This document shows positions 50-25,895 of a DNA stretch of 33,398 nt, one piece after another. The notes beneath the pieces were generated by a model. It was not told the DNA's origin. It made no database searches and was given only the letters and a program-made list of their open reading frames with translations. A program made the translations under genes and the position numbers. Source of the stretch: a virus; the UHGV virus genome UHGV-0115916. One strand, given 5' to 3'. Each line of letters begins with the position of its first letter. Position 1 is the stretch's first letter.

Positions 50-769
<720 letters not shown>

Positions 770-1021: not shown

Positions 1022-1023
1022 AT

Positions 1024-1054
1024 AAAAAAGCCCGTATTCGGCTACGGGCTTTTA
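1024..1054. terminator. Bidirectional intrinsic terminator hairpin
   Basis: A-run, 8-bp stem AGCCCGTA (1029-1036) / TACGGGCT (1043-1050), 6-nt loop, then T-run; lies between convergent ORFs. Confidence 0.6.
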
Positions 1055-1055
1055 T

Positions 1056-1796
1056 TCATTTATTTGATTCGAAGATATCGAAAATTGATGAATCATTGAT
1101 ATTTAAATTCTCAAACTCATTGTGTAAATCTTCTTTTAGCCTGATGATTTCACTAGAAAGGTCATAAGCTATAGATACATGTGGATTGTCAGTCAAATTC
1201 CATGTTAAATCCTCAAACTCTTTAACTTCATTGTCATTTATAGTAATACCCCAATAACCCATTATTATAGTTAGAAGGGTGATAAGTTCTGTTTGTTTAG
1301 AATTAATTTGTTCAAACTGCTTTAAGATTTTTGAAAAACTATCTTTATTATGAGGTTTAACACTCCATCCCAAAATTTTCAATTTACTATATTCGCTAAT
1401 CAAATCTCTATAGTTTTTTGAAGATAACCCTATTACACTATCAAAAGATTTAATAAGACCATGCATAACTTTAACTTGTGTAAAACGCACCGACTTTGTA
1501 TCGATTAAACAACATAACCATCTATTAAATGTATTTTCTAATATTGTAATTGTGAATTGCTTTTGTGTATTAGGTAAATGTGTAGATAAAATATTTGAAG
1601 AATGTTCAATAGCTAATTCTTGAGTAGCATCTCTTTTCCAGTTTTTAGCAATCAAAAAACCTTTATATGCAACAAAAGCCATAAAAATATTTGCTATTGA
1701 TGAAAGCCAGTCGGCAAGACTTCCAATATCAGAATGGGTTCCATATAAAATTAAAACTGATATAAAACCTAAAATCACATAAGGAATCTTTTTCAT
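1056..1796 (-). CDS. Signal-anchored membrane protein, paralogue of the 26826..27536 product
   Basis: 246 aa; N-terminal hydrophobic helix (ILGFISVLILYG), then DIGSLADWLSS motif and a second hydrophobic stretch, matching DLGSLADWISS in the 26826..27536 protein; C-terminal region diverged. Confidence 0.6.
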   Translation of the reverse strand: MKKIPYVILGFISVLILYGTHSDIGSLADWLSSIANIFMAFVAYKGFLIAKNWKRDATQELAIEHSSNILSTHLPNTQKQFTITILENTFNRWLCCLIDTKSVRFTQVKVMHGLIKSFDSVIGLSSKNYRDLISEYSKLKILGWSVKPHNKDSFSKILKQFEQINSKQTELITLLTIIMGYWGITINDNEVKEFEDLTWNLTDNPHVSIAYDLSSEIIRLKEDLHNEFENLNINDSSIFDIFESNK

Positions 1797-1856
1797 GAAT
1801 CCATCTCATAGTAAAAAAAACAATGTTAAATCACAATCTGCGACTATACAACAAAA

Positions 1857-2150
1857 TTAGCTTCCACCGACCATAATCAAAAGCACCTGTAAAAGTTGCC
1901 CTAGCGGTACTTGGATTACTGCGATACCGAACGCATCCAGTACAGGTACTATAATCCAGTTATAGAGAATGATTAGTGTCAGTACAAAACCTAGTGCATT
2001 ACGCCAGTGAAATGATGCTCTTTCAATCTCTTCTTTGTTTACTTCTATTTGCCCTTCGGCGTTAGTTTTCTGTGCTTCTTTTTCAACTGTTTTTTTCTTT
2101 ATGAAAAAATCCATACCAGATTTTATTAGTTCTACTAAGATACTAATCAC
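1857..2150 (-). CDS. Small membrane protein with two C-terminal hydrophobic helices (holin candidate)
   Basis: 97 aa; charged N-terminus, then LGFVLTLIILYNWIIVPVL and LGQLLQVLLIMVGG hydrophobic segments; sits in the lysis-proximal part of the late region. Confidence 0.4.
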   Translation of the reverse strand: MISILVELIKSGMDFFIKKKTVEKEAQKTNAEGQIEVNKEEIERASFHWRNALGFVLTLIILYNWIIVPVLDAFGIAVIQVPLGQLLQVLLIMVGGS

Positions 2151-2467
2151 GGTTTTACTCCTACTACGTATTGATAGAATTTCTTACCCTTAACACTAAG
2201 CATATGGGAATCAAGTAGTACAACTTCAAAAGGAATACTGTTGTATACCCATTCTAATGTATCTCCATCATTCCACTGTGTTTGGCGATAGCTAAAGACA
2301 ATATTCATATACGTCTTAGTATCTGGTGCTAGGGTTTTAATCTTCTTTTTGATTTTTTTATTATCTAACTGGAATAGATCAAACTGATAGGAGTTACCAA
2401 AAGGTTGTACTCCATCTAATGTAATCTTATCCACTTCTTCCCCATAGTGATGTTCTTCTAAATTCAT
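2147..2467 (-). CDS. Hypothetical protein
   Basis: 106-aa ORF with 4-nt overlap to the downstream gene (translational coupling); no motif recognised. Confidence 0.5.
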   Translation of the reverse strand: MNLEEHHYGEEVDKITLDGVQPFGNSYQFDLFQLDNKKIKKKIKTLAPDTKTYMNIVFSYRQTQWNDGDTLEWVYNSIPFEVVLLDSHMLSVKGKKFYQYVVGVKP

Positions 2468-2470
2468 AAC

Positions 2471-3973
<1,503 letters not shown>

Positions 3974-4006
3974 GAAAAGGGGCATTTTAAGCCCCTTTAT
4001 TTTTTT
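3974..4006 (+). terminator. Intrinsic terminator after the endolysin gene
   Basis: 8-bp stem AAAGGGGC (3976-3983) / GCCCCTTT (3991-3998), 7-nt loop, then ATTTTTTTC; overlaps the 3' end of the convergent ORF 3987..4262. Confidence 0.55.
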
Positions 4007-4262
4007 CAAGAATCGCTAATACGCGTTCTAATTTCACATCAACAATATGAATTTTAGAGCTTAGATCTTTAAGGCTACTCTCTAAATCATCTTGCCCTTT
4101 CTCCAGTCTCGCTACATCAGTTTTAACGTGTGTTAAATCTGATTCTAATTTAGCTAAACGAGAAGAAAGATCTTCTACATCGGCGGTTTTATCACGGAAT
4201 ATACTCCATAAAAAACCACCTGCGGCAATTACCACCGCTGCGATACTCTCCCATCCTGTCAT
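3987..4262 (-). CDS. Type-II membrane protein with coiled-coil domain (i-spanin-like or lysis accessory protein)
   Basis: 91 aa; N-terminal hydrophobic helix IAAVVIAAGGFLWSIF followed by heptad-like charged repeats (LAKLESDLTHVKTDVARLEKGQDDLESSLKDL); no o-spanin partner identified. Confidence 0.45.
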   Translation of the reverse strand: MTGWESIAAVVIAAGGFLWSIFRDKTADVEDLSSRLAKLESDLTHVKTDVARLEKGQDDLESSLKDLSSKIHIVDVKLERVLAILEKNKGA

Positions 4263-4311
4263 TTATTATCCTTAATATAGTTATTGTAGTTACTATTATT
4301 TATTTTAGTTA

Positions 4312-4959
4312 CTAATAACCAGTAAATGAGGCTAACGCTATTTGTACTTGTGCTGAACCCATAGCCTGTGTATATGACATTTGATATCTATTTACATATT
4401 GAAGAGTGAAAGAAGTAGAGCTATTACGCTTAATCAAAATTCCAGAATAACCCGTTACCGTACCATCATCAGACACGTTACCCACACATTGAGAAATGCA
4501 AATCCACGGATCAGCAAATGGTGATGTAACTGTAAGGGCTGTGCCTAAGTCGTGCCCTGCTGGAATAGTAAAGAAACCGCGTACACGTGGCATAGTACCA
4601 GCACTTGCCGCTGACCAGATAAGAGTACCAGCACTATTACGTACATCGAGATACCCAGAAGTTAAGGCCGCTGTATTGTTGGATAGCATAAAACGCCCTG
4701 TACCCGCTTCATAGAGCTGTGCACCGGGAAAGCAGTACCTACCATTACTTTGTAGTTGAAACCAGCGTAGGCCGTTTGCAGTGAAGAAATTAGCCCCTAA
4801 AAACCCTAGTGTAGAGCCATTACCAAAAGATGAGTTAATTAGATAGTACCCTGTATCGCTTAGAGTACCCATAGCTTTTACTTGAGATGATACCGTAGCT
4901 CTATTATCTGAATCGATTGTTAATTTACCTGCATCATTATAACATTGAAAACCTGACAT
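4312..4959 (-). CDS. Tail fibre-associated protein (possible receptor-binding or fibre assembly protein)
   Basis: 215 aa, Gly/Ser/Thr-rich; N-terminus MSGFQCYNDAGKLTIDSD is homologous to the N-terminus of the adjacent 4968..5261 product; lies downstream of the J-like gene. Confidence 0.5.
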   Translation of the reverse strand: MSGFQCYNDAGKLTIDSDNRATVSSQVKAMGTLSDTGYYLINSSFGNGSTLGFLGANFFTANGLRWFQLQSNGRYCFPGAQLYEAGTGRFMLSNNTAALTSGYLDVRNSAGTLIWSAASAGTMPRVRGFFTIPAGHDLGTALTVTSPFADPWICISQCVGNVSDDGTVTGYSGILIKRNSSTSFTLQYVNRYQMSYTQAMGSAQVQIALASFTGY

Positions 4960-4967
4960 ATATTCCT

Positions 4968-5261
4968 TTACTCAAAAGCATACAATTCAAACGATAGAGT
5001 ACGTGCGGATATACCACCTGTGGGGGTATAGCGTACTGAAAAGCTATTAGTTTGAGGTACACAATAAAACTCACTAAAATTATTTGTTACTGGGATAATT
5101 AGCCAACCTGTAGGACGTACACCCGTAAAATTAACTGTCCATACGTTTGTAGTACCTGCTGCAATTGCTAATGAAGCCGTACCCATAAAACGCATATTGT
5201 AATCACCTAGATCTACTACAAGCCTACCGGATGCATCCCAGCATTGTAGACCTTGTGCCAT
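4968..5261 (-). CDS. Tail fibre-associated small protein (paralogous N-terminus to the 4312..4959 product)
   Basis: 97 aa; N-terminus MAQGLQCWDASGRLVVDLGD parallels MSGFQCYNDAGKLTIDSD. Confidence 0.5.
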   Translation of the reverse strand: MAQGLQCWDASGRLVVDLGDYNMRFMGTASLAIAAGTTNVWTVNFTGVRPTGWLIIPVTNNFSEFYCVPQTNSFSVRYTPTGGISARTLSFELYAFE

Positions 5262-5434
5262 TATTCACCACCCTGTGTATTATCGTTCTGTACTAATAGT
5301 TTGGGTAGGTCATCCCATGAATGATTACCAGACTTAAGAATTAAAAACCCTTCGGCCTCTGCCATTTCTACATCGTCTGCTGTGAGCATTAAGCCCATAA
5401 TCTGACCTTCTGAATTATAGATAAAATTGTACAT
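5261..5434 (-). CDS. Hypothetical small protein (57 aa; not in the ORF track)
   Basis: ATG at 5434 preceded by AGGAGA RBS; TAATG stop/start overlap with the 4968..5261 gene; translated by hand as MYNFIYNSEGQIMGLMLTADDVEMAEAEGFLILKSGNHSWDDLPKLLVQNDNTQGGE. Confidence 0.35.
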   Translation of the reverse strand: MYNFIYNSEGQIMGLMLTADDVEMAEAEGFLILKSGNHSWDDLPKLLVQNDNTQGGE

Positions 5435-5487
5435 TTAAATATCTCCTAAAATAAAATGGGGAAGGTTAATCTCCTCCCCATTATTTA

Positions 5488-9178
<3,691 letters not shown>

Positions 9179-9802
9179 CTACTTCATTTTCCATTCTTGG
9201 TTTGCTTGGTTTACCTGTCCTAGTAAACTCATAAATTCATCTCCCGGATAATAAGACTGATAGACACTATTACTTGCAATAGTACGTGTCTGTACGTCTA
9301 ACTTCTGGAATATACTGTTTATATTTACTGTAAGTTCGGTTGTTTTATTATTGGGATCTGCTACTGCTTGGCAATAGTCAATATACCCGCTAAACATTAA
9401 CATTTGATAAATCGGTGTGGTTGTATAGGGATCAAGGATAACCATAATGATATTTACTTTAGCCTTGAATAGACCACCCGATAGAGCTAACATCTGTACA
9501 CTATTATCAATATTACTTACTTTGAAGTTGATAGAGTTATTGCTAATTCCCTTTTCTTCATTAAATGCTGGTAGTGAGTCCTGAATAATATCAGGGAATG
9601 ATTGATAGACTACGCTATTAAGTTCTAAGTTTTTAAATGCATCAGTCCAGTGAATACCATTTTGATTACGGGGGAATACATCAAAACACGTTACATGCTG
9701 CCCTAAACTCATTACTTCTTGAATGGTTAATTCTGTCCTATTACCACCTCTTGTAAGATTCCAGTACTTAAGTAGATTTGGATTAGTTAGTAAATCATCC
9801 AT
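9179..9802 (-). CDS. Minor tail protein (gpL position)
   Basis: 207 aa; gene order tape measure - minor tail proteins - J-like as in lambda-type tails. Confidence 0.5.
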   Translation of the reverse strand: MDDLLTNPNLLKYWNLTRGGNRTELTIQEVMSLGQHVTCFDVFPRNQNGIHWTDAFKNLELNSVVYQSFPDIIQDSLPAFNEEKGISNNSINFKVSNIDNSVQMLALSGGLFKAKVNIIMVILDPYTTTPIYQMLMFSGYIDYCQAVADPNNKTTELTVNINSIFQKLDVQTRTIASNSVYQSYYPGDEFMSLLGQVNQANQEWKMK

Positions 9803-9803
9803 A

Positions 9804-10355
9804 TTATAGATTCTCCGTTGCCTTTAGTTTTAGTGTTACTACATTCGTGATAGGCGTCTTATATTCGTTATCTGCATCTAATACGGCGGTAAGTTGAATA
9901 TTATTGTACTTAATGATTTCCCCTGCCTGTACGCTGGAACGTAGAGCCGGGAATACAGTAATAGAAGTATTAGTACGGTCGATAATGCGATAGATTTTAG
10001 TATGATTGGTGAATTGAACCATATCACCCACACCTAGTAACTGTGAGTTAGTTGTGATTTGGATTGATCCCGCTGCTACTGCGTTTGTACTGGATACTGC
10101 ACCAGTTTGTGTACCTGTGTATTTTGATAGGTGTCCTAAGTCCATAGGGAAAGGCTTACCTAGTGAATATGTAGAAATGAAATTATCCACTTGGCGACGG
10201 TCTTTAATGTTATATGTTAGTGTAAATTCAACTTCATAGTATTGAATACCCGTTGCACGTTGTAACTTTTGCCCCGTCCATGATTGGTGTTCATACATTG
10301 GCTGTACGCTATTTAAAGTAACACCAGATACTTTAATTGCATTTGTAAAATTCAT
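9804..10355 (-). CDS. Minor / distal tail protein (gpM position)
   Basis: 183 aa; first gene after the tape measure gene. Confidence 0.5.
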   Translation of the reverse strand: MNFTNAIKVSGVTLNSVQPMYEHQSWTGQKLQRATGIQYYEVEFTLTYNIKDRRQVDNFISTYSLGKPFPMDLGHLSKYTGTQTGAVSSTNAVAAGSIQITTNSQLLGVGDMVQFTNHTKIYRIIDRTNTSITVFPALRSSVQAGEIIKYNNIQLTAVLDADNEYKTPITNVVTLKLKATENL

Positions 10356-10393
10356 ATATATTTCCTCTTGGGTTGTATGATGTATTTATATAA

Positions 10394-10418
10394 GAAAAGG
10401 GGCATAACGCCCCCTTTC
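10394..10418 (-). terminator. Hairpin (attenuator-like) between the tape measure and distal tail genes
   Basis: 10-bp stem 10394-10403 / 10409-10418 with a 5-nt loop; the single A-C mismatch on the plus strand becomes a G-U pair in the minus-strand RNA; followed on the minus strand by a U/A-rich tract. Confidence 0.35.
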
Positions 10419-10420
10419 AA

Positions 10421-12604
10421 TTATGAGTTTCTTCTCTGAGAATCACGTACAGCCTGTACAACACTGTTTTGATATTTCTTTAGATTAGCCTGAAATTGTT
10501 TATCATCGCTCATGCCGTAGTTATACATAGGGGCATTTACGATAATATCGCCACCACCAGTACCGTTACCGTTGCTATCTTGATTATCTAAGAATTGAGT
10601 TAGTTTCTTATTAGCCTCTGGTTGTACTACACGTTCACCCGCTTTAAGTACAAATGACTTATCATTATAGCTTGCAGGAAGGTTATCTACGCCGCCGTGG
10701 AATTGACCGCTATTAGATGCACCTTTTGCTGTACTGATAATACTCATACCCATACCTGCAATCTGTGCATATGCCGCTAGGTTCTGTGGGAAACCTAAAG
10801 ATAGTGCACTTGCTAACGCCTCTTGAATCTTCATAATGGTCATAGAGATGGTAATACCCTTCTGTACTGCATAGAACGCCTGAGCCGCCCCGGATGACTC
10901 ACCAAAAGCCGCCGCCATACCATCACCGATCTGTGTCATTGCAGATTCAGAAGTAGATAGAATATTCATGTACTCTTGATTCTGAATCTGTAGTGCTTTA
11001 GTTGCGTACTGTGCTGTAATTGCCGCCTTACGCTTTTCAAAAGATTCTTTATCCTGAATTAGCAATTCATTCTGTTTTAGAATTGCATCTCTTTCTTCTT
11101 GCATACGTTCCATATCGTAAGAAGTGGTATCAAGTCCTAAAGATTGATCAAGTTGATTTCCTAAGTAATTAGACTGTTGTTTATTTAGATCACCGTTCGC
11201 AAGTAAAGCATTTTGATCTAGTGTCTGTTGGTTAGGGTTACTATAACCAATCATCTGATTGATCATATTAAGTCTACCCGCCGCCCCTGCTGTTAGTTGG
11301 TCGTTTAGTAATTCCTGTAGTTTTACATCAGATAAGCCTAATGTTTTTGCACTCTTCTTAATTACGTTTACGATTTCGTTTTGCTGGCGTTTGAATTCTG
11401 CTAACTGACGTTCATTAGTACCTTCAGTCTGATCTACAAGTACCTTATCTAATGCGGCCTGTGCTGCAATGCGTTGTTGTGCTGCTTTAGCCTGTTCGCT
11501 GGCTGCTGCTTTAGCCGCTGCCGCTGCTGCCTTAGCTGCTTTCTCTGCGGCCTTTTTAGGATCTTCTAATGGTGTCCATGCTGCGTTACCACGTGGGTTA
11601 GTTACTGTGGCTTTACCAGTTGGTAAATTACTATTCAGTACAGGCATGTTATTTTTATTCTTTTCGGCGTTAGCTTGATCAATTAATGCAAGTGCATCAT
11701 CACCTAAGCCAAAACCTAAGCCCATTGATTTTAGAAGTTTACTAAAGCTGGCTGCTCGGTTCATTTGAGTTTCCCAAAATCCCTTTGCTGTATCACCTTC
11801 TTTCATTGCTGCAATGAATTCATTAGTAGCAGATACAATAGGGTTTAATGTTTCAATCAAATATTCCTGGCCTGTATCCAGTAGAGTACGTAGATTATTA
11901 TCGAATTCTTCATAGGCTTTAGCTTGATCTTCACTAACTGCTACAGTTTGTTTTTTAATATTCGCCATTGCTTCAGAGTAACTATTAAATTCACTGAGTA
12001 CTCCAGTTAGACGGGAACCATTACTAGCTACTGCTTCCATTGCATAGGTTATTTCTGCTTGTGTTTTTCCTGCATCTCTCATTTTATAATAGAGATCTAC
12101 CATTGCTTCAATACCGCCATTGGCTTTACCTACATATTTTGTAAAGTCATTAACGTTTAAACCCATCTCTTTTACGACGGTAATAAACTCACCTGTACCC
12201 GCTGCGTACCCCTCACCCATTTTATCGGATGTATCTTGCGAAATATCCGCTAGACCTTCTGCATCTATACCAGTTTGTCTAAATGCCTTTTGTAGTTTCT
12301 GTAGGTCGGTTACTGATATACCAGATCGTGTAGAAAGTTGATTTAATTCACGTACTAACCCGTTAACCTTAAGTACAAGTGCACCTACTGCCGTTCCTGC
12401 ACCTAGTGCTACTGCGGAAATACCACCGATACCCGTTGAAAGTTTCCCGAATACTTGAGAAGTATTAGATGCAAAACCACCTAATGATCCCCCGGCTTTT
12501 TTACCGAATGCATCTACTCTTTGTTCTGCCTGTTGTAGTGCTTTAGATAGTCCTGTACTGTCACCATCTATTTCTACTTTAATTTTTTCGTTCTTCCTTG
12601 CCAT
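10421..12604 (-). CDS. Tail tape measure protein
   Basis: 727 aa, largely helical/Ala-Lys-Gln-rich with AAEKAAKAAAAAAKAAASEQAKAAQQRIAAQAA; immediately downstream of the G/GT chaperone genes; TAATG overlap with the upstream ORF. Confidence 0.8.
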   Translation of the reverse strand: MARKNEKIKVEIDGDSTGLSKALQQAEQRVDAFGKKAGGSLGGFASNTSQVFGKLSTGIGGISAVALGAGTAVGALVLKVNGLVRELNQLSTRSGISVTDLQKLQKAFRQTGIDAEGLADISQDTSDKMGEGYAAGTGEFITVVKEMGLNVNDFTKYVGKANGGIEAMVDLYYKMRDAGKTQAEITYAMEAVASNGSRLTGVLSEFNSYSEAMANIKKQTVAVSEDQAKAYEEFDNNLRTLLDTGQEYLIETLNPIVSATNEFIAAMKEGDTAKGFWETQMNRAASFSKLLKSMGLGFGLGDDALALIDQANAEKNKNNMPVLNSNLPTGKATVTNPRGNAAWTPLEDPKKAAEKAAKAAAAAAKAAASEQAKAAQQRIAAQAALDKVLVDQTEGTNERQLAEFKRQQNEIVNVIKKSAKTLGLSDVKLQELLNDQLTAGAAGRLNMINQMIGYSNPNQQTLDQNALLANGDLNKQQSNYLGNQLDQSLGLDTTSYDMERMQEERDAILKQNELLIQDKESFEKRKAAITAQYATKALQIQNQEYMNILSTSESAMTQIGDGMAAAFGESSGAAQAFYAVQKGITISMTIMKIQEALASALSLGFPQNLAAYAQIAGMGMSIISTAKGASNSGQFHGGVDNLPASYNDKSFVLKAGERVVQPEANKKLTQFLDNQDSNGNGTGGGDIIVNAPMYNYGMSDDKQFQANLKKYQNSVVQAVRDSQRRNS

Positions 12605-12939
12605 TACTTTTTACCCTTTTTAATAGCCATGTTTTTAATCATCTCCCCAATAGAATTAATCTCCTGAGCTTGATTATTAATTTTTTGTTGTTCCCTTTTT
12701 AATCTACGCTCTTTTGTAGTTAGAGAATCATCGAGCATATCCATGAAATCAAAATCACTGTACTTAAGGGTTTTCTTATAATTGGCTGGTAAGTTTGGAT
12801 TGTACATAGCCATTAGATAACAAGTATGAGTATGATAAAGCATATCCATTTTTTCTTGCTTACTACTCATACAAGATTTATAAACTTCTAATGCTTGGAA
12901 TAAATCAGGATCTATATTCTCCATTTCGTCAATACTCAT
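12604..12939 (-). CDS. Tail assembly chaperone T segment (expressed as G-T fusion by -1 frameshift)
   Basis: 111-aa ORF in the -1 frame relative to G; the frame is open by hand translation from the slippery site through this ORF (…KKIIEDHELRTYLDLICTRGMSIDEMEN…). Confidence 0.6.
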   Translation of the reverse strand: MSIDEMENIDPDLFQALEVYKSCMSSKQEKMDMLYHTHTCYLMAMYNPNLPANYKKTLKYSDFDFMDMLDDSLTTKERRLKREQQKINNQAQEINSIGEMIKNMAIKKGKK

Positions 12940-12989
12940 ACCCCTAGTACAGATAAGATCTAGATATGTGCGTAGTTCGTGATCCTCAA

Positions 12990-13289
12990 TTATTTTTTTT
13001 CGATTTCGTCCACTACATCAGATTCTTTATATAGATCCATAATAGCCATATATATTTTTGCTACTACTTCAGAATCGAGTACATTTAGGTTTACACGACC
13101 TTCAATATCTTCAGTACTGAAAATTGGATCACCGATTTCATCACAAGTACATACGGATACGCATTCCATAGGATCGGTTAGTTTAGAAATATCTTTTGCA
13201 CGTGCACGGTGAATATATAGATCAATACCTTCAATACTATAAGTGTGTTTCTTTGGTGCTAGTTTGTTTAATACATCCTGTAGGTTCAT
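12990..13289 (-). CDS. Tail assembly chaperone G
   Basis: 99-aa acidic protein between the major tail protein and tape measure genes; ends in the slippery A-run. Confidence 0.65.
   Translation of the reverse strand: MNLQDVLNKLAPKKHTYSIEGIDLYIHRARAKDISKLTDPMECVSVCTCDEIGDPIFSTEDIEGRVNLNVLDSEVVAKIYMAIMDLYKESDVVDEIEKK
12993..12999 (-). other. Putative -1 programmed ribosomal frameshift slippery heptamer A_AAA_AAA
   Basis: Eight consecutive A on the minus strand (12993-13000) read GAA AAA AAA TAA in the G frame; a -1 slip enters the open T frame. Confidence 0.55.
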
Positions 13290-13300
13290 TATAATTTCCT

Positions 13301-13335
13301 TTTATTATTGTAAAAAAATAGGGCGATAGAAAATA
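13301..13335 (-). terminator. Intrinsic terminator / attenuator after the major tail protein gene
   Basis: 10-bp stem 13310-13319 / 13326-13335 with a 6-nt loop; the one plus-strand mismatch is a G-U pair in the minus-strand RNA; followed on the minus strand by AUUUUUUUA. Confidence 0.55.
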
Positions 13336-13351
13336 CTATCACCCTTATTTA

Positions 13352-13810
13352 TTATTCTTTTGGTAGTAAACCAGATTCGATAGCTGCACCATCAACCGCT
13401 AGATTAAACGATTTGGTAACTACTGCGTCTTTATCACCAGCGATAGTTGTAGAACTAACGAAACATGTATAGACAACATAGCAGCCTGTAGTTTCAGTAG
13501 CGTCTGTGTAGTAACTTAGACGAATCTGACAACGCTTCTGCTCATCTGCTAGTGTTTCTAGCAATTGGTGTGTCTCGTTATCTGGAAGATAGTTAACTTG
13601 TAGTTCAATATCTGGAATTGATTTAGTACCTAATAGTTTACGGTTATAAGCACTATTGAATGTGACTACATCGATTACAACTGATTCAAAACCTGAAGTA
13701 GTGAAAGAGGCAACTTCTGGTACTTCTTTAAAGTCAGTAGCTAGGGTAGTACCCGCACTTGTACCTACTTCAACTTTTAAATTAGCACCTGAAAAGATAT
13801 CCATTGGCAT
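13352..13810 (-). CDS. Major tail (tube) protein
   Basis: 152 aa; directly upstream of G/GT and the tape measure; homologous to the N-terminal domain of the 13877..16903 product. Confidence 0.7.
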   Translation of the reverse strand: MPMDIFSGANLKVEVGTSAGTTLATDFKEVPEVASFTTSGFESVVIDVVTFNSAYNRKLLGTKSIPDIELQVNYLPDNETHQLLETLADEQKRCQIRLSYYTDATETTGCYVVYTCFVSSTTIAGDKDAVVTKSFNLAVDGAAIESGLLPKE

Positions 13811-13876
13811 TTTTATATTTCCTTATATAAGTTTATTTCTAGTAGGGCAAGAATCCTTTCTTACCCTACGTTGTAT

Positions 13877-16800
13877 TTATTTATTCATTAGTTGTTGTAC
13901 TAATGCTTTTAGTTCATCAATTTGTGATTGTTGATAATCATTATCTTTCTTCAATGATTGAACCGATCCCATTAAATCCATAACAATTGGGTTAACATCG
14001 ATAGACGGTCTATCGCGTGTTAGTTGTTCTACTATGTTTCCTTCTTCATCAAGTACTTCATCATAGATTTCTGGATTGTGTTTCACATACTGAGGTGTGT
14101 TTATTTCTGACTCTTCGGCAATAATCCCAAAACGCTGGCGTTTTTGTTCATCATCTTTATAGACAAAATTAACCATTTTTTGAGATAAAATTCTTTCTAA
14201 CGCTTCGTCGGTTTTTGCTTCTACAATATCTTCTTTATAGTCTCTACCGGATGTACCTTGTAAAGCCAATGCACCACCACCTAGCGGTAGTGAGATCCAA
14301 TATTGTGGGCTTCCTGCTGCTGTGTAGGTCTGGAATCCGTAGTTGCCTACAGTTTCTGAAAAACCAGCACGGATACGTACAACACCATTTGATGCAAGAT
14401 TACATGTATAAGAGGCTGAACCGTTGGAACGTAGCATAATTGCATCAGTACCAGCACTTGAACCACCACACGTAACACGGTTGCTAGTTACATCGAATGT
14501 ACCAGCACATGTAGTATTACCTAATGCAGTAATAACACCGCCGAAATTCATGGTATTAGTAGTACGTGAATAGTTGAATAGAGCTACACCACCTGTATTA
14601 TCACGGTTTAAACGGAATGATCCACCATCTGCTACAAATAGATATGTACTATCTGAGGAATCCGATTCTACAAATGATAAACATGGGTTTGTACTGGTAA
14701 TAGTTAATGGGTTTGACGCTGCGTTAGAGAATTTAGCAGTACCATTATTAGTTACGTTGATACCCGGCGTTGTAATTAGACTACTGAAATAAGAGCCACC
14801 ATTACTAAAGGTCATTAAGCCCTGTCCAACGGTTGCGGAACCTTCACCAACATAGATACGTGCATCATAATCGTTTCCAGTACCGCTACTGTGAAAATCA
14901 ATAAATGATCCCGCCTTTGTTGTTGTACTGCCTAATTCAAAACCTACTGTACTTGTATTTAATGTACCAACCTGTAAGCCACCAGTTTTAATAGTTTGTG
15001 ACCCGTTCCATTGGTTACCACCATCTAGCGTTGGGATAGTTACACCCAATTGATCATTCGTTAGGTATTCTTTCCATGCAGTCCACCCCGCCGTACCAGC
15101 TAATACACGTCTCCATTTACGATTACTTGCGTAGGATGTATATTCTTGTACACAAGCCTGTGCGGTTCCTGCACCAGTTGGATATACGTATAAACCGCCA
15201 GCCTCGGCAATTGGGTATTTGTTAGCAGGGGTTGCACTTGCGTTTAGTGTTTGGTAATAGAATCCAGATTGAGCCGCACCCAATGTATCTAGGTTAACAC
15301 TAGCGGCTAGTGCCGTCTGACTACGGTACATTGCCTGTAAATTATTACGGGCTGCATCTACACTATTTGCACCAGTACCGCCCTCTGTAATTGCAAGTTT
15401 ATTCGTTAGTGTTAGTACACCATTGAAATGTAAACTTGCAGCCATAATATTCATTGAACCACTACCAGCCGCCGTAGTAGAACCGCCTGTAGATTGAATA
15501 CGAGAATCATAATCTACGGTACTACCGGAACTGTGAAAATCAATATAAGATGTACTAGCCGCTACTGTAGAGCCAATTTCAATACCGCCACCTGTGGAAG
15601 AATTAGCCGCAAATCTATTTTGATTGCCGTTAAATTGTTGGTTACCAGACCATGTATTTTCTGTACTTAATAGTGGGATTGTTGCACCAGAAGTACCAGT
15701 ATTAATTACTGCTGAAGTACCTAAGCCTAAGTTTGTACGTGCGTTAGCTACGTTAGTTAAATCAGATAGGTTACTTGCCTTAATAAGATACTTACCATCC
15801 ATTGCAGTACTTGTAACGATACCTAAGTTTACTTGTGCCTGTGCAACGGTACTAGCACCTGTGCCACCGTTCGCCACTGGTACGATATCGAAAGTACCCG
15901 CCGCTTTAACGCCTAAGTTTGTACGTGCTTCTGCTGCCGTCTTAGCACCAGTACCGCCATTTGCTACCGTTAGAGCTTGACCTAAAGTTAATGATCCTGC
16001 ACTTGCTACGCCTAAAGTAGAAGTAGTGGTTTTAATACTTTCACCAGTGATTGCACCAGTTGCCTCTACATCTGCACCCGTAATTTTATTTGCAGAAATT
16101 AAGCTATTGACTTTGACATTACCGGAAAATGTTTTATTCCCTGCAATAGTCTGATCACCAGTTAGAGCTACATACTTTGTATCACCTAGATTAGTTGTTA
16201 AAATACGTTGCCATGCGGTAGTCTGGTTTTTTGCATAGATTGCAAGTGAACCTGTTTTAGTCATTGCGATAGAACTAAAAGTAGTACCATCAATTAGACC
16301 TACACCCATCATATCAGCACTGGCTGGATTACCCACTTGTGACGCTGGGATCTTGATAAAGCTGTTACCTAGTGGGCGTTCTGGTTGATACTGTGGTACA
16401 TCACCACCATTACTACCTACACCATAGGAACCTTCTACTAATGCTGCACTTGCTAACGCCGTACCATCACGTGTAATAACGTCTGTAGGTACAAAAGAAT
16501 AGGTTTTCATTACTACGGTATCTTTATCACCAGATACGTTAGCTGATTGGATTTGACCATTAACCATTGAATAATTGATTAAACCATCTTCAATATTGTA
16601 GCGTAGTGTTAATTGAAATTCTTTTTGACTCTCGGTTGCAGCATCTAAGAAAGCATGTGTTTCATCATCTGGAATATAGTTAACAGTAATATCAATATTA
16701 TCTACGTTTTGTTCTGCTGCTAGTTTAGATGAGTACTCACTATCGTATGTTTCAAGTGTTTGTATCTCACTTTCGATTCCAAATGACGGCATCGCTGCCA

Positions 16801-16903
16801 ATTCGTTTATTTCTTCGTTGCCTGCATTATCGGGAATACGGTTAGCAGTATCATTATTATAGAATAACTTAAAGTTATTACCTGTAAAAATATCATTACT
16901 CAT
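13877..16903 (-). CDS. Tail fibre protein with N-terminal tail-tube-like domain and C-terminal intramolecular-chaperone-like domain
   Basis: 1008 aa; N-terminal ~150 aa aligns with the 152-aa major tail protein (DIFTG/DIFSG, VNYIPDDETH/VNYLPDNETH, GDKDTVVMK/GDKDAVVTK); repeated NGGTGA...NLG fibre repeats in the middle; C-terminus (GRDYKEDI ... RFGIIAEE ... IDELKALVQQL) resembles peptidase-S74-type autoprocessing chaperone domains. Confidence 0.7.
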   Translation of the reverse strand: MSNDIFTGNNFKLFYNNDTANRIPDNAGNEEINELAAMPSFGIESEIQTLETYDSEYSSKLAAEQNVDNIDITVNYIPDDETHAFLDAATESQKEFQLTLRYNIEDGLINYSMVNGQIQSANVSGDKDTVVMKTYSFVPTDVITRDGTALASAALVEGSYGVGSNGGDVPQYQPERPLGNSFIKIPASQVGNPASADMMGVGLIDGTTFSSIAMTKTGSLAIYAKNQTTAWQRILTTNLGDTKYVALTGDQTIAGNKTFSGNVKVNSLISANKITGADVEATGAITGESIKTTTSTLGVASAGSLTLGQALTVANGGTGAKTAAEARTNLGVKAAGTFDIVPVANGGTGASTVAQAQVNLGIVTSTAMDGKYLIKASNLSDLTNVANARTNLGLGTSAVINTGTSGATIPLLSTENTWSGNQQFNGNQNRFAANSSTGGGIEIGSTVAASTSYIDFHSSGSTVDYDSRIQSTGGSTTAAGSGSMNIMAASLHFNGVLTLTNKLAITEGGTGANSVDAARNNLQAMYRSQTALAASVNLDTLGAAQSGFYYQTLNASATPANKYPIAEAGGLYVYPTGAGTAQACVQEYTSYASNRKWRRVLAGTAGWTAWKEYLTNDQLGVTIPTLDGGNQWNGSQTIKTGGLQVGTLNTSTVGFELGSTTTKAGSFIDFHSSGTGNDYDARIYVGEGSATVGQGLMTFSNGGSYFSSLITTPGINVTNNGTAKFSNAASNPLTITSTNPCLSFVESDSSDSTYLFVADGGSFRLNRDNTGGVALFNYSRTTNTMNFGGVITALGNTTCAGTFDVTSNRVTCGGSSAGTDAIMLRSNGSASYTCNLASNGVVRIRAGFSETVGNYGFQTYTAAGSPQYWISLPLGGGALALQGTSGRDYKEDIVEAKTDEALERILSQKMVNFVYKDDEQKRQRFGIIAEESEINTPQYVKHNPEIYDEVLDEEGNIVEQLTRDRPSIDVNPIVMDLMGSVQSLKKDNDYQQSQIDELKALVQQLMNK

Positions 16904-16917
16904 TTCTCTATATTTCC

Positions 16918-17322
16918 TTATTGTTTTTGAGTTGCTACAATATTTATAGAGAATGATAAAGATTGATAACCAGTAGTCGGATCTGTAACTACTTCCCCAT
17001 TGTCGAATGCATATGATAATAGTGTTACTGCATTATCTTTAAATTCTTTAATTGTATTTGTTTTGAAATAATCCATAATTTCCCCGAAAATATCGGCGGG
17101 AAGTTTTACTGATGGTTCGGGTACTAACAGGAATTGAAAATCAAATGTTCCCGTTTGTCTTTGAGTACCGAAATTTGTTAGGTTATAACTCTGGTTTACA
17201 CTAACTAGAATGAATAGATCCTTACCTGCCTGAATATTCATAGCCTTTCGGATTGGTTGAATATTATTCAAACTCGTAATTATCGTGGTTTGTACGTCTT
17301 TTAACAGTGCCATAATTACCAC
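16918..17322 (-). CDS. Head-tail connector / neck protein (tail terminator or completion candidate)
   Basis: 134-aa ORF between the capsid and tail genes; function assigned by position only. Confidence 0.4.
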   Translation of the reverse strand: MVIMALLKDVQTTIITSLNNIQPIRKAMNIQAGKDLFILVSVNQSYNLTNFGTQRQTGTFDFQFLLVPEPSVKLPADIFGEIMDYFKTNTIKEFKDNAVTLLSYAFDNGEVVTDPTTGYQSLSFSINIVATQKQ

Positions 17323-17645: not shown

Positions 17646-19496
17646 TTATGCTTGTAGTTTAATTTGTACGAATGCTTCCTCGTGACCGATTGCAGTGTCG
17701 AGATATTGGAAACTACGAATAGCGATAGTTTGAGCCGCACGATAAGTAGTATCGTCAAAATCTAGTTCTTGGCCTTCATTCCAGTTAGCGAAAATTAGCT
17801 CTGAGAAGTCACCGATTAGAATGGTATCTTGTGCAACGAAAGTAGATTCAATTACACGTACTTCATCGTTTAGCCACATGTCATAGCGATGACCTGCTAC
17901 CATTGCTACGGCTGCGGTATTGCTGAGAACTGCGGTTTGACGTAGTTTTGCTAGCATTGCTGGATGCACGATAGCTACACAACGATTAACATCAACGTTT
18001 GCTACACCTAGTGCCTCAATTGCTTTTTGTACGTCTGCTTCGGTTACTGTACCCGCTGCTGCTGTTTCTTGTACTGGTACTGCTAGTGCAATTTTATCAA
18101 ATACTGCTTTTTCTAGACCGTTAGAGCAATGGCGTAGTAGTTCATCAGTTACATAACGTTCAGTTGCTGCATTGCTTAGTAGCATTGCTTTAGTAACTTT
18201 AATACCTGCTGCAAACATAGTAGGCTTTAGAGTGATCTTGTCGAAAGATTCAAAACCATCTACTACGGATTCATCTTCACCGTAGAATTTCGCTACAGGG
18301 TTCATACCTTTAGCACGTGGGATAGAGAAATTACCACGACCTGCTAGGCCACCAAATACAGTAACAGGTAGTTGACCTAGTACAGTACGTGCTAGTAGTT
18401 CACGTAGATAAGAGTCGGCTAGTTGTTCTTTAACTAGACCTGCTGCGGTAACAGTAGAGGTAGTATCTGAAGTAGAACGTACCATTGCATTTAGATCAGC
18501 ACTATAACCACGTGAACCTTTATCAAAAGTTGCTAGTTGGTTATCTTCACCTTTAAGACTACGTAGACCTTCAGCGATTAGAGATTTATTTTCCATTTGT
18601 TTGATATCCTTATCAATTGATTTATCTTTATTTAGTAGTGAGCGTTTAAATTCATCTACGCTTACACCGTTTTTAATTGCTTCTTCGGTACTAATCCCTA
18701 GTACGTTAGAAATAGATTGAAGTTCGCGTACACGCTTATCTTCTACATCTTTATTTAGTTTTTCTTGAATATTGATTTCAGTAGTTGCAATAGAACGTTC
18801 TTCTACTAGTTCCACTTCTTGAAGTGGTTCGGATACTTCTTCTTTTACTTCTTCTTCTTTCACATCTTCAGCGACTACTACAACTTCTTCAGTAACTTCT
18901 AATTCTGGTTGTACTTCTACTTCCTGAATTTCTTCTACGGCTTCTACTTGTGGTAATTCTTGTTTTTGTTCTTCCATGATTGGTTGATCCTCTAAAGTGA
19001 TTTCTTCATTTCTATTTAGTGATCTTCCAATTCCTACTGTATTGTCTGCGGGGGTACTTACTGAACTTAATTCATATGGTTCCCATCGAGTTACATATAA
19101 ATTATCACCTTCAAAGTAATAATCTTTAATGTTGTAACCTACTGATACTTTCGGGCGAATGCCTTCTAAGATCATACCGAAAATAGTTGTAGCACTTCCT
19201 AAAGCACTAAAGCGTACTGTTGCACGACATACTTTATCCATATCTACGCGGGCGTTTTCTACTATTCCAACTTGACGCATTGCATCATGTTCTACTAGAA
19301 CTGGTGCACCATCATTAAGACGGTTTAAATCTACGTTCTCTGGATTGCATAGAAGGATCTCATTAAATAGAGATCCGTTGATTTCGCGAGTTACTGGAAT
19401 TTCTGAGGCAAAAGATAATTCGACGGTACGATCATTTTCATCAATAGCATTACTGATCTGTGTTAGATTGATCGCCCTCTTCTGGTTCAATTCCAT
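17646..19496 (-). CDS. Prohead protease - major capsid protein fusion (HK97 family)
   Basis: 616 aa; N-terminal ~150 aa matches the HK97-type prohead protease pattern (GAPVLVEHD..., KVSVGY, ELSSVSTPADN); acidic Glu/Val-rich linker (aa ~170-230); C-terminal ~300 aa consistent with an HK97-fold capsid protein; 47-nt overlap with the portal ORF makes the start uncertain. Confidence 0.7.
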   Translation of the reverse strand: MELNQKRAINLTQISNAIDENDRTVELSFASEIPVTREINGSLFNEILLCNPENVDLNRLNDGAPVLVEHDAMRQVGIVENARVDMDKVCRATVRFSALGSATTIFGMILEGIRPKVSVGYNIKDYYFEGDNLYVTRWEPYELSSVSTPADNTVGIGRSLNRNEEITLEDQPIMEEQKQELPQVEAVEEIQEVEVQPELEVTEEVVVVAEDVKEEEVKEEVSEPLQEVELVEERSIATTEINIQEKLNKDVEDKRVRELQSISNVLGISTEEAIKNGVSVDEFKRSLLNKDKSIDKDIKQMENKSLIAEGLRSLKGEDNQLATFDKGSRGYSADLNAMVRSTSDTTSTVTAAGLVKEQLADSYLRELLARTVLGQLPVTVFGGLAGRGNFSIPRAKGMNPVAKFYGEDESVVDGFESFDKITLKPTMFAAGIKVTKAMLLSNAATERYVTDELLRHCSNGLEKAVFDKIALAVPVQETAAAGTVTEADVQKAIEALGVANVDVNRCVAIVHPAMLAKLRQTAVLSNTAAVAMVAGHRYDMWLNDEVRVIESTFVAQDTILIGDFSELIFANWNEGQELDFDDTTYRAAQTIAIRSFQYLDTAIGHEEAFVQIKLQA

Positions 19497-23949: not shown

Positions 23950-24041
23950 CTAAAGTTAAAACTTCACTCACGATTTTAATTTTTGATTTGTAATAATATT
24001 TATATTATCATTGTATTATAAAGTAACAACAAGGACATGTA

Positions 24042-24980
24042 ATGAAACACATAATCCAAACCAGAAGTGTTTTTAAGGATATCGAAGACTCTTTATTTAG
24101 TGAGTTGCATTCAGCTAAGACAAGTATCAAAATCTGTGTTGCATGGATAAACTTTGAGCTTTTTGAAAATATATTATTATCTAAGGCTAAAGAAGGTGTT
24201 GAAGTTGAGATATTAGTTAATAATGATTATATCAATACAAAATTTCTTGATAAAATATCTGATAATATAAAACCATTAATTAATCTAATTAAAAACCCTA
24301 TTAGTAACCACTTAATGCATCATAAATTTTGTATCATTGATGATGAAGTTTTGATTACTGGCAGTTATAATTGGTCAAAAAGAGCACCATATCATTATGA
24401 AAATATAATAATCATCCGTAATGATTTCAATCTAATAATGCAATTTAAACATGAGTTTGCAGATTTAAAATACATGGGTGCAATGCCAAGTACAGAATTT
24501 AATGCATTTAAAGTAACCAAAAATCTCAATAGATTTGTTGTTGGCACATATAGTTCATCTGTGGGGATATATGAAACCGTCACATTGCAGTTATGGGAAA
24601 TTGATATTAACAACTTAACTTTTGAACGACATGGCGAAATGGATATCCCTTTCTTCAATTATTTATTAGATATTAATACTGATGATCATTATCTTATTGA
24701 TGAAAAAGAAAGGTACATCGATCTATATGATCAAGAGCGTAGACAGATGGAGACTATCCAAAGTCATTTTAGAAGATTAAATTGTTCAATTCATGCTTAT
24801 GGAACAGCAATAATAGCGAACGAGAGCGAATACCTTGAAGGTTATGAAGAGCCTATTCGTGTAATTCACTTCAATTGGATAGATATGCGATTAAGCAAAG
24901 TATTACCCTCTTCTTTGCCCGCAACTATGGAACTTGAAGGATTATGGCACGAAATATATGCTCCAAATGGATATATTTAA
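24042..24980 (+). CDS. Phospholipase-D-family (single HKD motif) nuclease with uncharacterised C-terminal domain
   Basis: 312 aa; exact H-x-K-x4-D-x6-G-S-x-N motif at aa 93-110 (HHKFCIIDDEVLITGSYN); AAGGA RBS 6 nt before the ATG; AT-rich gene. Confidence 0.8.
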   Translation: MKHIIQTRSVFKDIEDSLFSELHSAKTSIKICVAWINFELFENILLSKAKEGVEVEILVNNDYINTKFLDKISDNIKPLINLIKNPISNHLMHHKFCIIDDEVLITGSYNWSKRAPYHYENIIIIRNDFNLIMQFKHEFADLKYMGAMPSTEFNAFKVTKNLNRFVVGTYSSSVGIYETVTLQLWEIDINNLTFERHGEMDIPFFNYLLDINTDDHYLIDEKERYIDLYDQERRQMETIQSHFRRLNCSIHAYGTAIIANESEYLEGYEEPIRVIHFNWIDMRLSKVLPSSLPATMELEGLWHEIYAPNGYI

Positions 24981-25012
24981 ATAATATTCTATAATTAATG
25001 AGGAACGGTATT

Positions 25013-25372
25013 ATGTCTAATTATCCTATACCACTTAGCCTTGAATTTAATAGTCAAGATACTGCTAATATCATTTGTAGTTATCTAGAAAAAAATCATC
25101 AAGATTCTATTTTAAAAACCATATTAAATATAGATTTGTCTTTTATTGATTATCGTGCACAATCTTCTAATTACTTTATAATTAATGACGTTGAATATAT
25201 TGGAGATAATAATTATATTTTATATTATAAAATAAACTACTACATTTATAATCTCTGTAAAGATATGGATATTGATGATGACTACGAGACTTCGATAAAT
25301 TTTACATTGAATAATGGATTTTTAGTATTTGATATAATTGATTGTGAAAGAAATATATCAGATGAAATATAG
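25013..25372 (+). CDS. Hypothetical acidic small protein, partner of the PLD-family nuclease
   Basis: 120 aa from ATG 25013 (GAGGA RBS 8 nt upstream; the track start 24998 lacks an RBS); Asp/Glu-rich (DMDIDDDYE, DIIDCERNISDEI); 32 nt downstream of the nuclease gene. Confidence 0.5.
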   Translation: MSNYPIPLSLEFNSQDTANIICSYLEKNHQDSILKTILNIDLSFIDYRAQSSNYFIINDVEYIGDNNYILYYKINYYIYNLCKDMDIDDDYETSINFTLNNGFLVFDIIDCERNISDEI

Positions 25373-25436
25373 CCATATTTAATTATCACTTAAGGATTTC
25401 AACATCAGGATTTAAATTTTAATTATATATAATAGT

Positions 25437-25468
25437 AAAAGCCTAATACTCATCAGTAATAGGCTTTT
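25437..25468. terminator. Bidirectional terminator hairpin between convergent accessory operons
   Basis: 9-bp stem AAAAGCCTA (25437-25445) / TAGGCTTTT (25460-25468) with a 14-nt loop; A/T-rich flanks. Confidence 0.5.
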
Positions 25469-25475
25469 ACCTAAA

Positions 25476-25895
25476 TTATAATTGATTCAATCGATAGATA
25501 TTAGATGTACTTGAGCCATCGCTATACACCTCTGATATAGTCAGTTTGTTTCCATCCACTTTGTATTTTACTACACTATCAGCCGGATCATTTCTCCAAC
25601 GACCTGAGCTATCTGGATTGTTTGATGCCCACATAACTTGATCATCAATCAGTTTGCACTTGATAGCCCATCTTGTGCTGTCATCTTTACGTATGTAATG
25701 GACATAGGCTACATCAGATTGAATCTTATCAAGCTTCATTATTTTATGATCTCGCCCAAACATAGATGCAGCCGCCGCTTTGCAGATCTGACCAACATTA
25801 GCTTCCGCTGCGTAGAGTGAAGAACTGAACAATAATGGCACAATCACTAATAACTTTATCATCGCATATCGTCTCGTAGTAAAAATTAATTTCAC
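25476..25895 (-). CDS. Exported (signal-peptide) protein of unknown function
   Basis: 139 aa; GTG start at 25895 with AAGGA RBS; N-terminus MKLIFTTRRYAMIKLLVIVPLLFSSSLYA-AEA is a classical signal peptide; 1-nt gap to the upstream HNH gene. Confidence 0.6.
   Translation of the reverse strand: MKLIFTTRRYAMIKLLVIVPLLFSSSLYAAEANVGQICKAAAASMFGRDHKIMKLDKIQSDVAYVHYIRKDDSTRWAIKCKLIDDQVMWASNNPDSSGRWRNDPADSVVKYKVDGNKLTISEVYSDGSSTSNIYRLNQL

Follow-up and report, generated by a model that had tools for sequence, protein, structure and literature searches.

A conserved terminator-like hairpin, probably leaky, between the tail-tube and tail-chaperone genes of an Enterobacteriaceae prophage family

Terminator-like hairpins located right after a tail-tube gene have been predicted before. 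In the Bacillus phage SPP1, a predicted Rho-independent terminator (positions 11,255-11,304) separates the tube gene 17.1/17.1* from the chaperone gene 17.5 (PMC6316719). The element described here, a hairpin that we call H1, occupies the same place in a virus genome of 33,398 nucleotides (UHGV-0115916; this whole stretch is referred to below as the window). The order of tube, terminator, frameshifted chaperone and tape measure is the same as well, as is the combination of a stem-loop and a U-run within a late operon, and both systems have two forms of the tube protein, one plain and one C-terminally extended. However, SPP1 grows on a Gram-positive host and shows no sequence relationship to our locus, it makes its second tube form through a +1 frameshift where our locus has a separate upstream gene fused to a fibre, and its element is likewise only predicted. 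Another phage has a predicted, cluster-conserved terminator directly after its major tail subunit gene, which resembles H1 in combining a 12-bp stem with a short T-run; in that case, however, the host polymerase is a different one and the U-tract is much weaker (TTTCT).

Three further systems can be compared with H1. In phage LUZ7, more than 60% of the termination sites mapped by ONT-cappable-seq have an average efficiency below 50%, while the T7 terminator T-phi, after the major capsid gene 10, is cited as an inefficient terminator that balances expression (PMC9163698). Here too a leaky terminator after an abundant structural gene would lower the dose of what lies downstream, but the T7 and LUZ7 cases are measured and T7 uses its own polymerase, whereas H1 is predicted from sequence and its use by the host polymerase is assumed. 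The lambda terminator tR2 underwent nearly complete repression in E. coli when placed near a stop codon (8-9 bp in the shortest constructs) and reached an efficiency of about 0.9 only beyond 30 bp, the terminating ribosome occluding the hairpin (PMC4824070). H1 resembles tR2 as an enterobacterial terminator within about 30 nt of a stop codon (6 nt in the window, 5-22 nt in its relatives); the distance was set artificially for tR2, whereas that of H1 is natural and its translation coupling in a late operon is presumed. Finally, the Clostridium cip-cel operon is governed by selective RNA processing and stabilisation (PMC4423207, PMC8219983), with stem-loops flanking the cistron needed in the largest amount, much as hairpins flank the tube cistron here. 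In cip-cel, however, the loops act without termination and the processing site has been mapped, while our hairpins were found by reading and folding the sequence.

H1 lies on the minus strand (13345-13320) and was delineated by direct reading, by a pattern scan and with RNAfold. Its sense RNA forms a 10-bp stem with a 6-nt loop: the 5′ arm (13345-13336, AGGGUGAUAG) and the 3′ arm (13329-13320, CUAUCGCCCU) enclose the loop UAUUUU (13335-13330) and are held together by nine Watson-Crick pairs, with five G-C pairs in the stem, and by one wobble, U13341·G13324. The U-tract (13319-13312) starts with A13319 and continues with seven U (U13318-U13312), U accounting for 8 of the 10 nt past the last G-C pair. 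On the other side of the stem, positions 13354-13346 hold the stop codon of the tube gene (UAA, 13354-13352), a second in-frame UAA (13351-13349) and an A-rich tract, AAUAAAU, directly next to the 5′ arm; stop codon and stem are separated by 6 nt, and the stem is on the same strand as the tube gene. The sense RNA is predicted to fold with -16.2 kcal/mol (z -6.0), and none of 200 shuffles was as stable. For the plus-strand RNA, in which a C·A mismatch opens a 1x1 internal loop, the corresponding values are -12.6 kcal/mol and z -4.1. An earlier note on this DNA had described just such a structure, with a 10-bp stem containing a G-U wobble and then UUUUUUU in the sense RNA, and an A-C mismatch on the plus strand. 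That description was correct, and only the boundaries need moving: the interval it gave, 13301-13335, covers the loop, the 3′ arm, the U-run and some spacer, and leaves the 5′ arm (13336-13345) outside.

Intrinsic terminators have a G+C-rich stem of about 5-14 bp closed by a loop of 3-8 nt, and a U-rich stretch of about 7-9 nt directly 3′ of the stem on the transcribed strand. Both features are present in H1, which has every sequence-level attribute expected of a Rho-independent (intrinsic) terminator and appears to be an ordinary one, that is, one more case of a known type.

The genes around H1 support this orientation. All genes of the tail module are on the minus strand. The gene that ends just before H1 (13352-13810, 152 aa) encodes a short tail-tube (major tail) protein, which matches phrog_158 (E 5.6e-20) and the Pfam family Phage_tail_3 (27.5 bits, against a cut-off of 24.2). 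The next gene (12990-13289, 99 aa) has a weak match to phrog_344 and was assigned as a G-like tail assembly chaperone from its position and frameshift site; its Shine-Dalgarno (SD) motif AGGA (13300-13297) lies 19 nt 3′ of the H1 stem. A slippery heptamer, A_AAA_AAA (minus strand, 12999-12993), abuts the stop codon of the G-like gene (gene end ...GAA AAA AAA UAA). From the heptamer the -1 frame is stop-free, through an ATG at 12939 (54 nt beyond 12993), as far as 12604, and includes a 111-aa ORF (minus strand, 12604-12939) as the putative GT-type fusion partner. By sequence, the G-like gene and the -1 ORF form the classical lambda-type G/GT tail-chaperone arrangement. The tape measure protein gene follows (minus strand, 10421-12604, 727 aa; phrog_13674, E 2e-77), and after it come genes for a Dit-like protein, other tip proteins and a J-like protein of 1100 aa, all recognized by PHROG and Pfam matches. 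Because of the identities of the tube, G/GT and tape measure genes, the tail gene order can be called lambda-like, with tube, G, GT and tape measure corresponding to V-G-T-H of lambda; the terminase is of the lambda gpA type (Pfam). The identities previously proposed for the major tail protein, the chaperone and the tape measure are thus borne out by PHROG and Pfam matches and by the frameshift site.

The gene upstream of the short tube gene (minus strand, 13877-16903) encodes 1008 aa and had been called simply a fibre. Its N-terminal part of about 155 aa is 30% identical to the short tube protein over 152 aa (BLASTP, E 1e-20), and the protein matches first phrog_158, then fibre PHROGs and finally, at the C-terminus, Peptidase_S74, an intramolecular chaperone. 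The N-terminus is, as judged from these matches, a tail-tube domain and a paralogue of the short tube protein, and the remainder is fibre, so that the former name fits the larger part of the protein but misses its fusion to a tube domain. None of the relatives described below lacks either gene, the tube-fibre fusion or the short one. That two tube paralogues are conserved together, and that one of the two carries a fibre, was less expected than the terminator.

Could H1 be a functionless chance palindrome? AT-rich spacers with short G+C islands can fold, and a scan of positions 1-17000 with loose criteria returned 16 terminator-like sites against 8.6 ± 3.2 in shuffled sequences, about twice the expectation. 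With strict criteria (at least 9 pairs, at least 5 G-C, at most 2 G·U, a loop of 3-8 nt and at least 6 T in 8), both strands of the whole window contained three sites, H1 among them, compared with none in 100 dinucleotide-preserving shuffles. Rfam returned no match to the element at gathering thresholds, and only chance-level matches at E ≤ 1. A nucleotide search of a phage collection gave a match confined to the C-terminus of the fibre; consequently, relatives were sought with the tube protein as query.

This search yielded 21 IMG/VR loci and 8 GTDB genomes, the latter all from Enterobacteriaceae (Pseudocitrobacter, Enterobacter, Phytobacter, Pluralibacter, Serratia, Buttiauxella, Scandinavium and Mangrovibacter). 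Matches to the tube protein were also found in 18 of 5426 complete E. coli genomes, from which 8 loci were inspected, and in one record that bears the label phage DCP80, with 37% identity to our tube protein. Synteny is kept across all these relatives. In 24 of the 29 IMG/VR and GTDB loci, as well as in 8 of the 8 E. coli prophages inspected, the tube-chaperone spacer contains a G+C-rich hairpin followed by a U-rich tail, although the tail of the E. coli subgroup is weak (GUUUCACUAU). DCP80 has GGGACC-UUCG-GGUCCC and six U in the same place. For nearly every distinct spacer, the hairpin score was reached by only 0-4% of shuffles of that same spacer. Together with the strict scan, and with a position kept down to 37% protein identity in DCP80, this makes a chance palindrome very unlikely, close to negligible.

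The position of the hairpin is kept, but its sequence is not. About 14 different stems occur at this spacer among the relatives, including GGGAAGG/CCUUCCC, AAGGGGG/CCCCCUU, GGGGGA/UCCCCC, GGUAAGGA/UCCUUACC, GGUGAUGGCA/UGUCGUCACC, GAGUGUUAGC/GUUAGCACUC and a bulged GAGUG-A-UGGA. RNAalifold found no consensus structure on MAFFT alignments of the spacers (18 sequences in one alignment, 20 in another), because the stems differ in length and sequence and their arms are mis-registered. Covariation was therefore assessed from per-sequence folds, with a strand-symmetric hairpin score and shuffles, and by hand comparison. Double changes that preserve pairing were observed at stem position 3 (G-C in the window, A-U in loci L018 and L030) and at stem position 2 (G-C in the window, A-U in L006). 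The distance from the stop codon to the stem ranges from 5 to 22 nt, and in most relatives the motif AUAAAU stands directly 5′ of the stem, even where the stop codon is as much as 22 nt away.

Since the position is kept while the stem sequence turns over, we consider the element to be under selection, apparently as an intrinsic terminator of the sense strand. The anatomy, the gene identities and the positional conservation all agree with what had originally been proposed, namely a terminator-like element acting in the sense-strand RNA and separating the tube gene from those for the chaperone and tape measure. On the other hand, in five relatives from two lineages (L012, L013, L015, L026 and L029) the spacer is missing altogether and the chaperone gene abuts or overlaps the tube gene, and for this reason the element must be regarded as dispensable. 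Such a pattern, common, selected and dispensable, is more in keeping with a tuning device than with an essential signal. The family also shows how such a terminator varies in nature at a single homologous site: some copies are perfect, some have a wobble, a bulge or a weak tail, and some loci have none.

A different reading of the same spacer would be that H1 terminates antisense transcription, alone or in both directions, or that it is a DNA-level feature, such as a site of recombination or a boundary between modules. Past the stem, the plus strand reads UAUUUAUUAUU, a stretch likewise rich in U, and promoter-like hits for that strand occur at 13268-13295 and 13327-13355; moreover, wholesale differences between the stems of relatives would be expected if modules were exchanged at this junction. 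However, no credible plus-strand gene is found nearby, and the promoter-like hits are fewer than in shuffled sequences (44 versus 62 ± 8). In nearly all variants the uninterrupted U-run is on the sense side, and where a stem is imperfect, the sense RNA mostly has G·U, which would not be expected for a DNA feature. We hold this reading to be highly improbable.

The G·U pairs deserve a closer look, as the earlier note took the wobble, which pairs in the sense RNA only, as a signature of function. In the nearest relative (L001, identical to L022, from Pseudocitrobacter faecalis DSM 27453; 96% nucleotide identity over the region), an A replaces G13324 of the window and the stem is perfectly Watson-Crick. 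This transition is the sole difference in the 62-nt spacer, and pairing is kept across it in the sense RNA only. Comparison of the same two sequences at the hairpin after the tape measure gene (H3, below) reveals two changes, both compatible with the sense helix; at the hairpin before the tube gene (H2, below) there is one change, which leaves a U·U mismatch in L001.

Across the stems of the relatives, as located by a strand-blind stem finder, interior G·U pairs outnumber A·C by 15 to 5 (binomial p = 0.04, a value that ignores shared descent). When obviously inherited cases are merged, the ratio becomes about 13:5 (p about 0.1), and it can be placed anywhere from about 13:5 to about 13:1, since four of the five A·C cases are A-tract/U-tract extensions or come from one mis-registered stem. 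The excess of G·U is suggestive only. Folding of whole spacers showed the sense strand to be more stable in 16 of 24 distinct tube-chaperone sequences (p = 0.018), favored the antisense strand on average for the fibre-tube spacer (+1.2 kcal/mol) and favored neither strand after the tape measure gene, these energies being confounded by A-rich sense flanks, which become U-rich flanks in the antisense RNA and add G·U pairs there. By whole-spacer folding energy, the "sense-only" signature does not generalize.

The wobble argument thus points in the right direction, as the 15:5 ratio indicates, but it is weaker than had been claimed, given the perfect stem of the nearest relative. In H1 the wobble looks like a tolerated polymorphism, the outcome of a single transition and no design feature. 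The orientation of the element is far more firmly shown by the U-run and the gene order, and positional conservation with turnover of the stem is much stronger evidence of function than the wobble.

H1 has companions. The hairpin H3, after the tape measure gene (minus strand, 10418-10394; RNAfold), has a 10-bp stem and the loop GUUAU. The wobble previously reported for it was confirmed as G10414·U10398; its U-run partly overlaps the 3′ arm (GCCCCUUUUCUUAU), and a G+C-rich hairpin occurs at this place in relatives as well. H2, which separates the tube-fibre fusion from the short tube gene (minus strand, 13869-13842), is a 12-bp stem with the loop AGGA and a predicted stability of -18.1 kcal/mol (z -6.7, RNAfold). 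H4, a fourth sense-strand hairpin (5482-5455), follows the J-like tail-tip gene and has 10 bp, a loop of 8 nt, exactly one G·U and the tail UUAUUUUAGG. The stem that had been noticed at about 13844-13867 and likened to H1 corresponds to H2. It does contain a wobble (U13863·G13848), but it is not the same kind of element, as no U-tract follows it in the window (tail UAGAAAUAAA) or in most relatives.

This distinction could be quantified by counting U in the 10 nt past the last G-C pair, over the distinct sequences of each spacer. For the H1 type, in the tube-to-chaperone spacer, the mean was 7.0 U, with at least 6 U in 20 of 25 distinct sequences; for the H3 type, after the tape measure gene, it was 6.1 (at least 6 U in 13 of 18); and for the H2 type, in the fibre-to-tube spacer, only 4.1, with at least 6 U in 7 of 30, namely L002 and the E. 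coli subgroup. By this count H1 and H3 resemble terminators in sequence, and H2, set apart from both by the missing U-tract, is judged not to be a terminator. Because a U-rich tail is specific to the H1 type and, to a lesser degree, to the H3 type, selection seems to act on the U-run too, beyond the hairpin itself.

The presence of H2 brings up an alternative in which H1 would act after transcription. According to this alternative, H1 and H2 are decay barriers that delimit a stabilized tube mRNA segment, blocking 3′ exonucleases and 5′-end-dependent decay as in selective RNA processing and stabilisation, while the polymerase is resistant to termination or the terminator is inefficient. Stable hairpins do occur on either side of the tube cistron in nearly all relatives. 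With H1 behind the tube gene and H2 in front, the stable 3′ stem-loop that marks selective RNA processing is present, and as H2 has no U-tract, at least one of the two hairpins cannot work by termination. In known operons, stoichiometry is set by stem-loops that close selected cistrons on the 3′ side (PMC4423207, PMC8219983). A termination-resistant polymerase would also suit a promoter-like site and a leader hairpin found before the small terminase gene, an arrangement compatible with antitermination. Still, the U-rich tail is specific to the H1 type (7.0 U versus 4.1 for H2) and an exonuclease block needs none, and no antiterminator was recognized. Overall we regard a purely post-transcriptional role as unlikely. 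Protection from decay does not exclude termination, as a terminated transcript would also end in a protective hairpin.

We consider it likely, rather, that H1 is a Rho-independent terminator on the late minus-strand transcript, partial in its effect, which raises the dose of the tube protein over that of the downstream proteins; termination itself, its partial extent and its effect on stoichiometry are what we infer from the arrangement described above. When RNA polymerase reaches the U-run (13318-13312), the 10-bp hairpin would form in the RNA being made and part of the transcripts would be released just past the tube cistron, while the others would extend into G/GT, the tape measure and the tip genes. 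Tube mRNA would thereby outnumber that for the chaperone and the tape measure. The tube protein is needed in roughly 150-200 copies, the chaperone and the tape measure in a few. Released transcripts would end in the hairpin and should thereby be protected from 3′ exonucleases, and the U·G wobble would simply be tolerated in the RNA.

Two observations suggest that termination is partial and that H1 is probably leaky. First, a sigma-70-like consensus scan, which is blind to activator-dependent promoters, found no minus-strand promoter-like site between 13320 and 12990, so that the downstream genes, which lie on the same strand and are presumably essential, would need read-through. Second, only 6 nt lie between the stop codon and the stem, close enough for a ribosome to repress a terminator; the foot of the 5′ arm would be covered by a ribosome halted at the stop codon, which would help leakiness.

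Lambda late transcription is antiterminated by Q, and antitermination of this type, if present here, would cause intrinsic terminators within the operon to be ignored. The leader of the small terminase gene contains a promoter-like site (24043-24015) and then a hairpin (23914-23889), and this pair would fit such a scheme; among the small genes, no Q-like antiterminator or late activator was recognized. If the leaky-terminator reading holds, the locus becomes a further example of a late operon giving very unequal doses from one transcript, here through leaky termination shortly after a stop codon. It would be of use for annotation and for the choice of parts in synthetic biology, and would change no concept.

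H2 requires a separate account. Of 30 distinct H2-type sequences, 21 have GGA in the loop (18 of them as AGGA), compared with 1 of 25 tube-chaperone spacers and 0 of 18 spacers after the tape measure gene, and the GGA loop is kept despite varied stems (GGGUAAGAA, GGUAAA, GGGGGAA, GUGGGUAG, GCGGUAC, GGGUGAC and others). CsrA typically recognizes GGA-containing hairpin loops (PMC13443453). In the window, the AGGA loop of H2 occupies 13857-13854, and the GGA of the tube-gene SD (13822-13820) lies 34 nt downstream. CsrA-type site pairs tolerate a second GGA a few tens of nucleotides away, at the SD, and H2 fits this pattern, with one GGA in the loop of a short hairpin and another in the SD 34 nt away. 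It could therefore be a CsrA-type site or a ribosome-standby site; an SD-like loop engaging the 30S subunit would have the same appearance in sequence.

Combining the two hairpins, one may picture the tube cistron as a conserved, hairpin-bracketed cassette, in which a leaky, ribosome-sensitive H1 and an H2 serving as a CsrA/30S standby site would jointly set the ratio of fibre-tube to plain tube to chaperone and tape measure. We hold this to be distinctly unlikely. Its setting would be a low-GC Enterobacteriaceae prophage family with two tube paralogues and, if it were true, tail production could be tied to the physiological state of the host.

As for the origin of H2, a dispersed repeat was ruled out by a scan of the window for GGA-loop hairpins: their number equalled the shuffled expectation, and H2 was the sole strong one. 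A GGA-loop hairpin ahead of the tube gene is, in any case, less ordinary than H1.

The late genes of the window include two tail-tube paralogues in tandem on the minus strand, one fused to a fibre and the other plain. The fusion gene (13877-16903, 1008 aa) encodes an N-terminal tube domain of ~155 aa, a long fibre and a C-terminal S74 intramolecular chaperone; the plain tail-tube gene (13352-13810) encodes a protein of 152 aa, to which the first ~155 residues of the fusion protein are 30% identical. Both paralogues were found in all relatives examined. The fused tube domains of these relatives are about 32-70% identical to that of the window (the identical L001 and L022, the nearest relatives, excepted), while the plain tube protein is less divergent, with 74-98% identity among same-family loci. 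This arrangement suggests that the fibres are anchored directly in the tail tube.

Each of the two hairpins flanking the plain tube gene is adjoined on its 5' side by an A-rich (A)AUAAAU motif (13346-13351 and 13870-13880, minus strand), which in relatives stays beside the hairpin even when as many as 22 additional nt separate it from the stop codon. In the spacer on the upstream side, between the fibre and tube genes, the motif forms UAAAUAAAUA and thereby provides stop codons in all three frames.

The hairpin in this upstream spacer, H2 (13842-13869, minus strand), lacks a U-tract. Its loop carries a conserved GGA, mostly as AGGA, and despite variable stems a GGA was found in the corresponding loop of 21 out of 30 distinct relatives. 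A second GGA, the Shine-Dalgarno sequence of the short tube gene, lies 34 nt downstream of the first. We did not find this conserved GGA-loop arrangement in the other two spacers compared (tube-chaperone and after the tape measure gene) or elsewhere in the window. In its geometry, H2 resembles a CsrA binding-site pair, or else a standby site with a Shine-Dalgarno-like sequence displayed in a loop; both are candidates.

In contrast to the tube gene of this element, the gene for the abundant capsid protein has no terminator behind it. The major capsid gene (17646-19496, minus strand; 616 aa), which matches both capsid PHROGs and protease-capsid fusion PHROGs, is separated from the next gene by a gap of only 9 nt, and this spacer contains no hairpin. 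Directly 3' of the 1100-aa J-like tail-tip gene we noted a terminator-like hairpin (5455-5482, minus strand) of 10 bp, with UUAUUUUAGG as its tail and one G·U pair when folded as sense RNA. It brings to four the number of late-operon sense-strand hairpins that contain exactly one wobble.

A canonical -1 slippery heptamer, A_AAA_AAA (12993-12999, minus strand), abuts the stop codon of the 99-aa chaperone ORF, and the -1 frame beyond it is open into a 111-aa ORF (12604-12939); judged by sequence, the pair has the arrangement of a programmed frameshift of the lambda G/GT type. A sigma-70-like site (ATTACA-17-TATAAT, 24043-24015, minus strand) lies upstream of the small terminase gene, whose likely start is the ATG at 23811. 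The leader between them is some 200 nt long and contains, about 100 nt after the site, a 9-bp hairpin (23914-23889, minus strand). This putative promoter and leader hairpin are reminiscent of lambda PR'-tR'; no Q-like gene was identified among the small genes.

Within 24000-33398, PHROGs recognised no replication, repressor or antiterminator genes, and several ORFs of 100-240 aa had no family match. Recognisable products of this region include a large serine recombinase (31450-33348) as well as two HNH endonucleases (25897-26622, 29987-30472). On the opposite strand, adjoining the small terminase gene, lies a gene for a PLD-like nuclease (24042-24980). A DNA methyltransferase gene (50-763) occupies the other end of the window. 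Two minus-strand genes (29435-29974, 29987-30472) flank a perfect 12-bp palindromic hairpin with seven G-C pairs (29949-29980), which on the plus strand has UUUUUAUUAG directly behind it and which reaches into the beginning of the downstream gene. Between the convergent lysozyme-like gene (3521-3973, plus strand) and a minus-strand gene (3987-4262) lies a hairpin (3976-3998) that is terminator-like on both strands, AAAGGGGC...GCCCCUUU, with U-runs on either side.

Relatives of the element (L022-L029 among them) occur in Enterobacteriaceae chromosomes, including those of Pseudocitrobacter, Enterobacter, Serratia and E. coli, which have about 50-57% G+C. The element itself (1-33398) is nevertheless low in G+C, at about 37% (30-42% along its length). 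Among 5426 complete E. coli genomes it is rare, with 18 matches, and most of the IMG/VR viral contigs related to it measure 22-36 kb. The 141-kb record of 'Escherichia phage DCP80' (L038, PQ671644.1), classified among the T4-like Straboviridae, nevertheless carries a siphovirus-type module (2680-8658) of fibre-like gene, tube, chaperones and tape measure. UUCG-tetraloop hairpins lie 3' of its fibre-like, tube and tape-measure genes. This record may be chimeric or mis-assigned.
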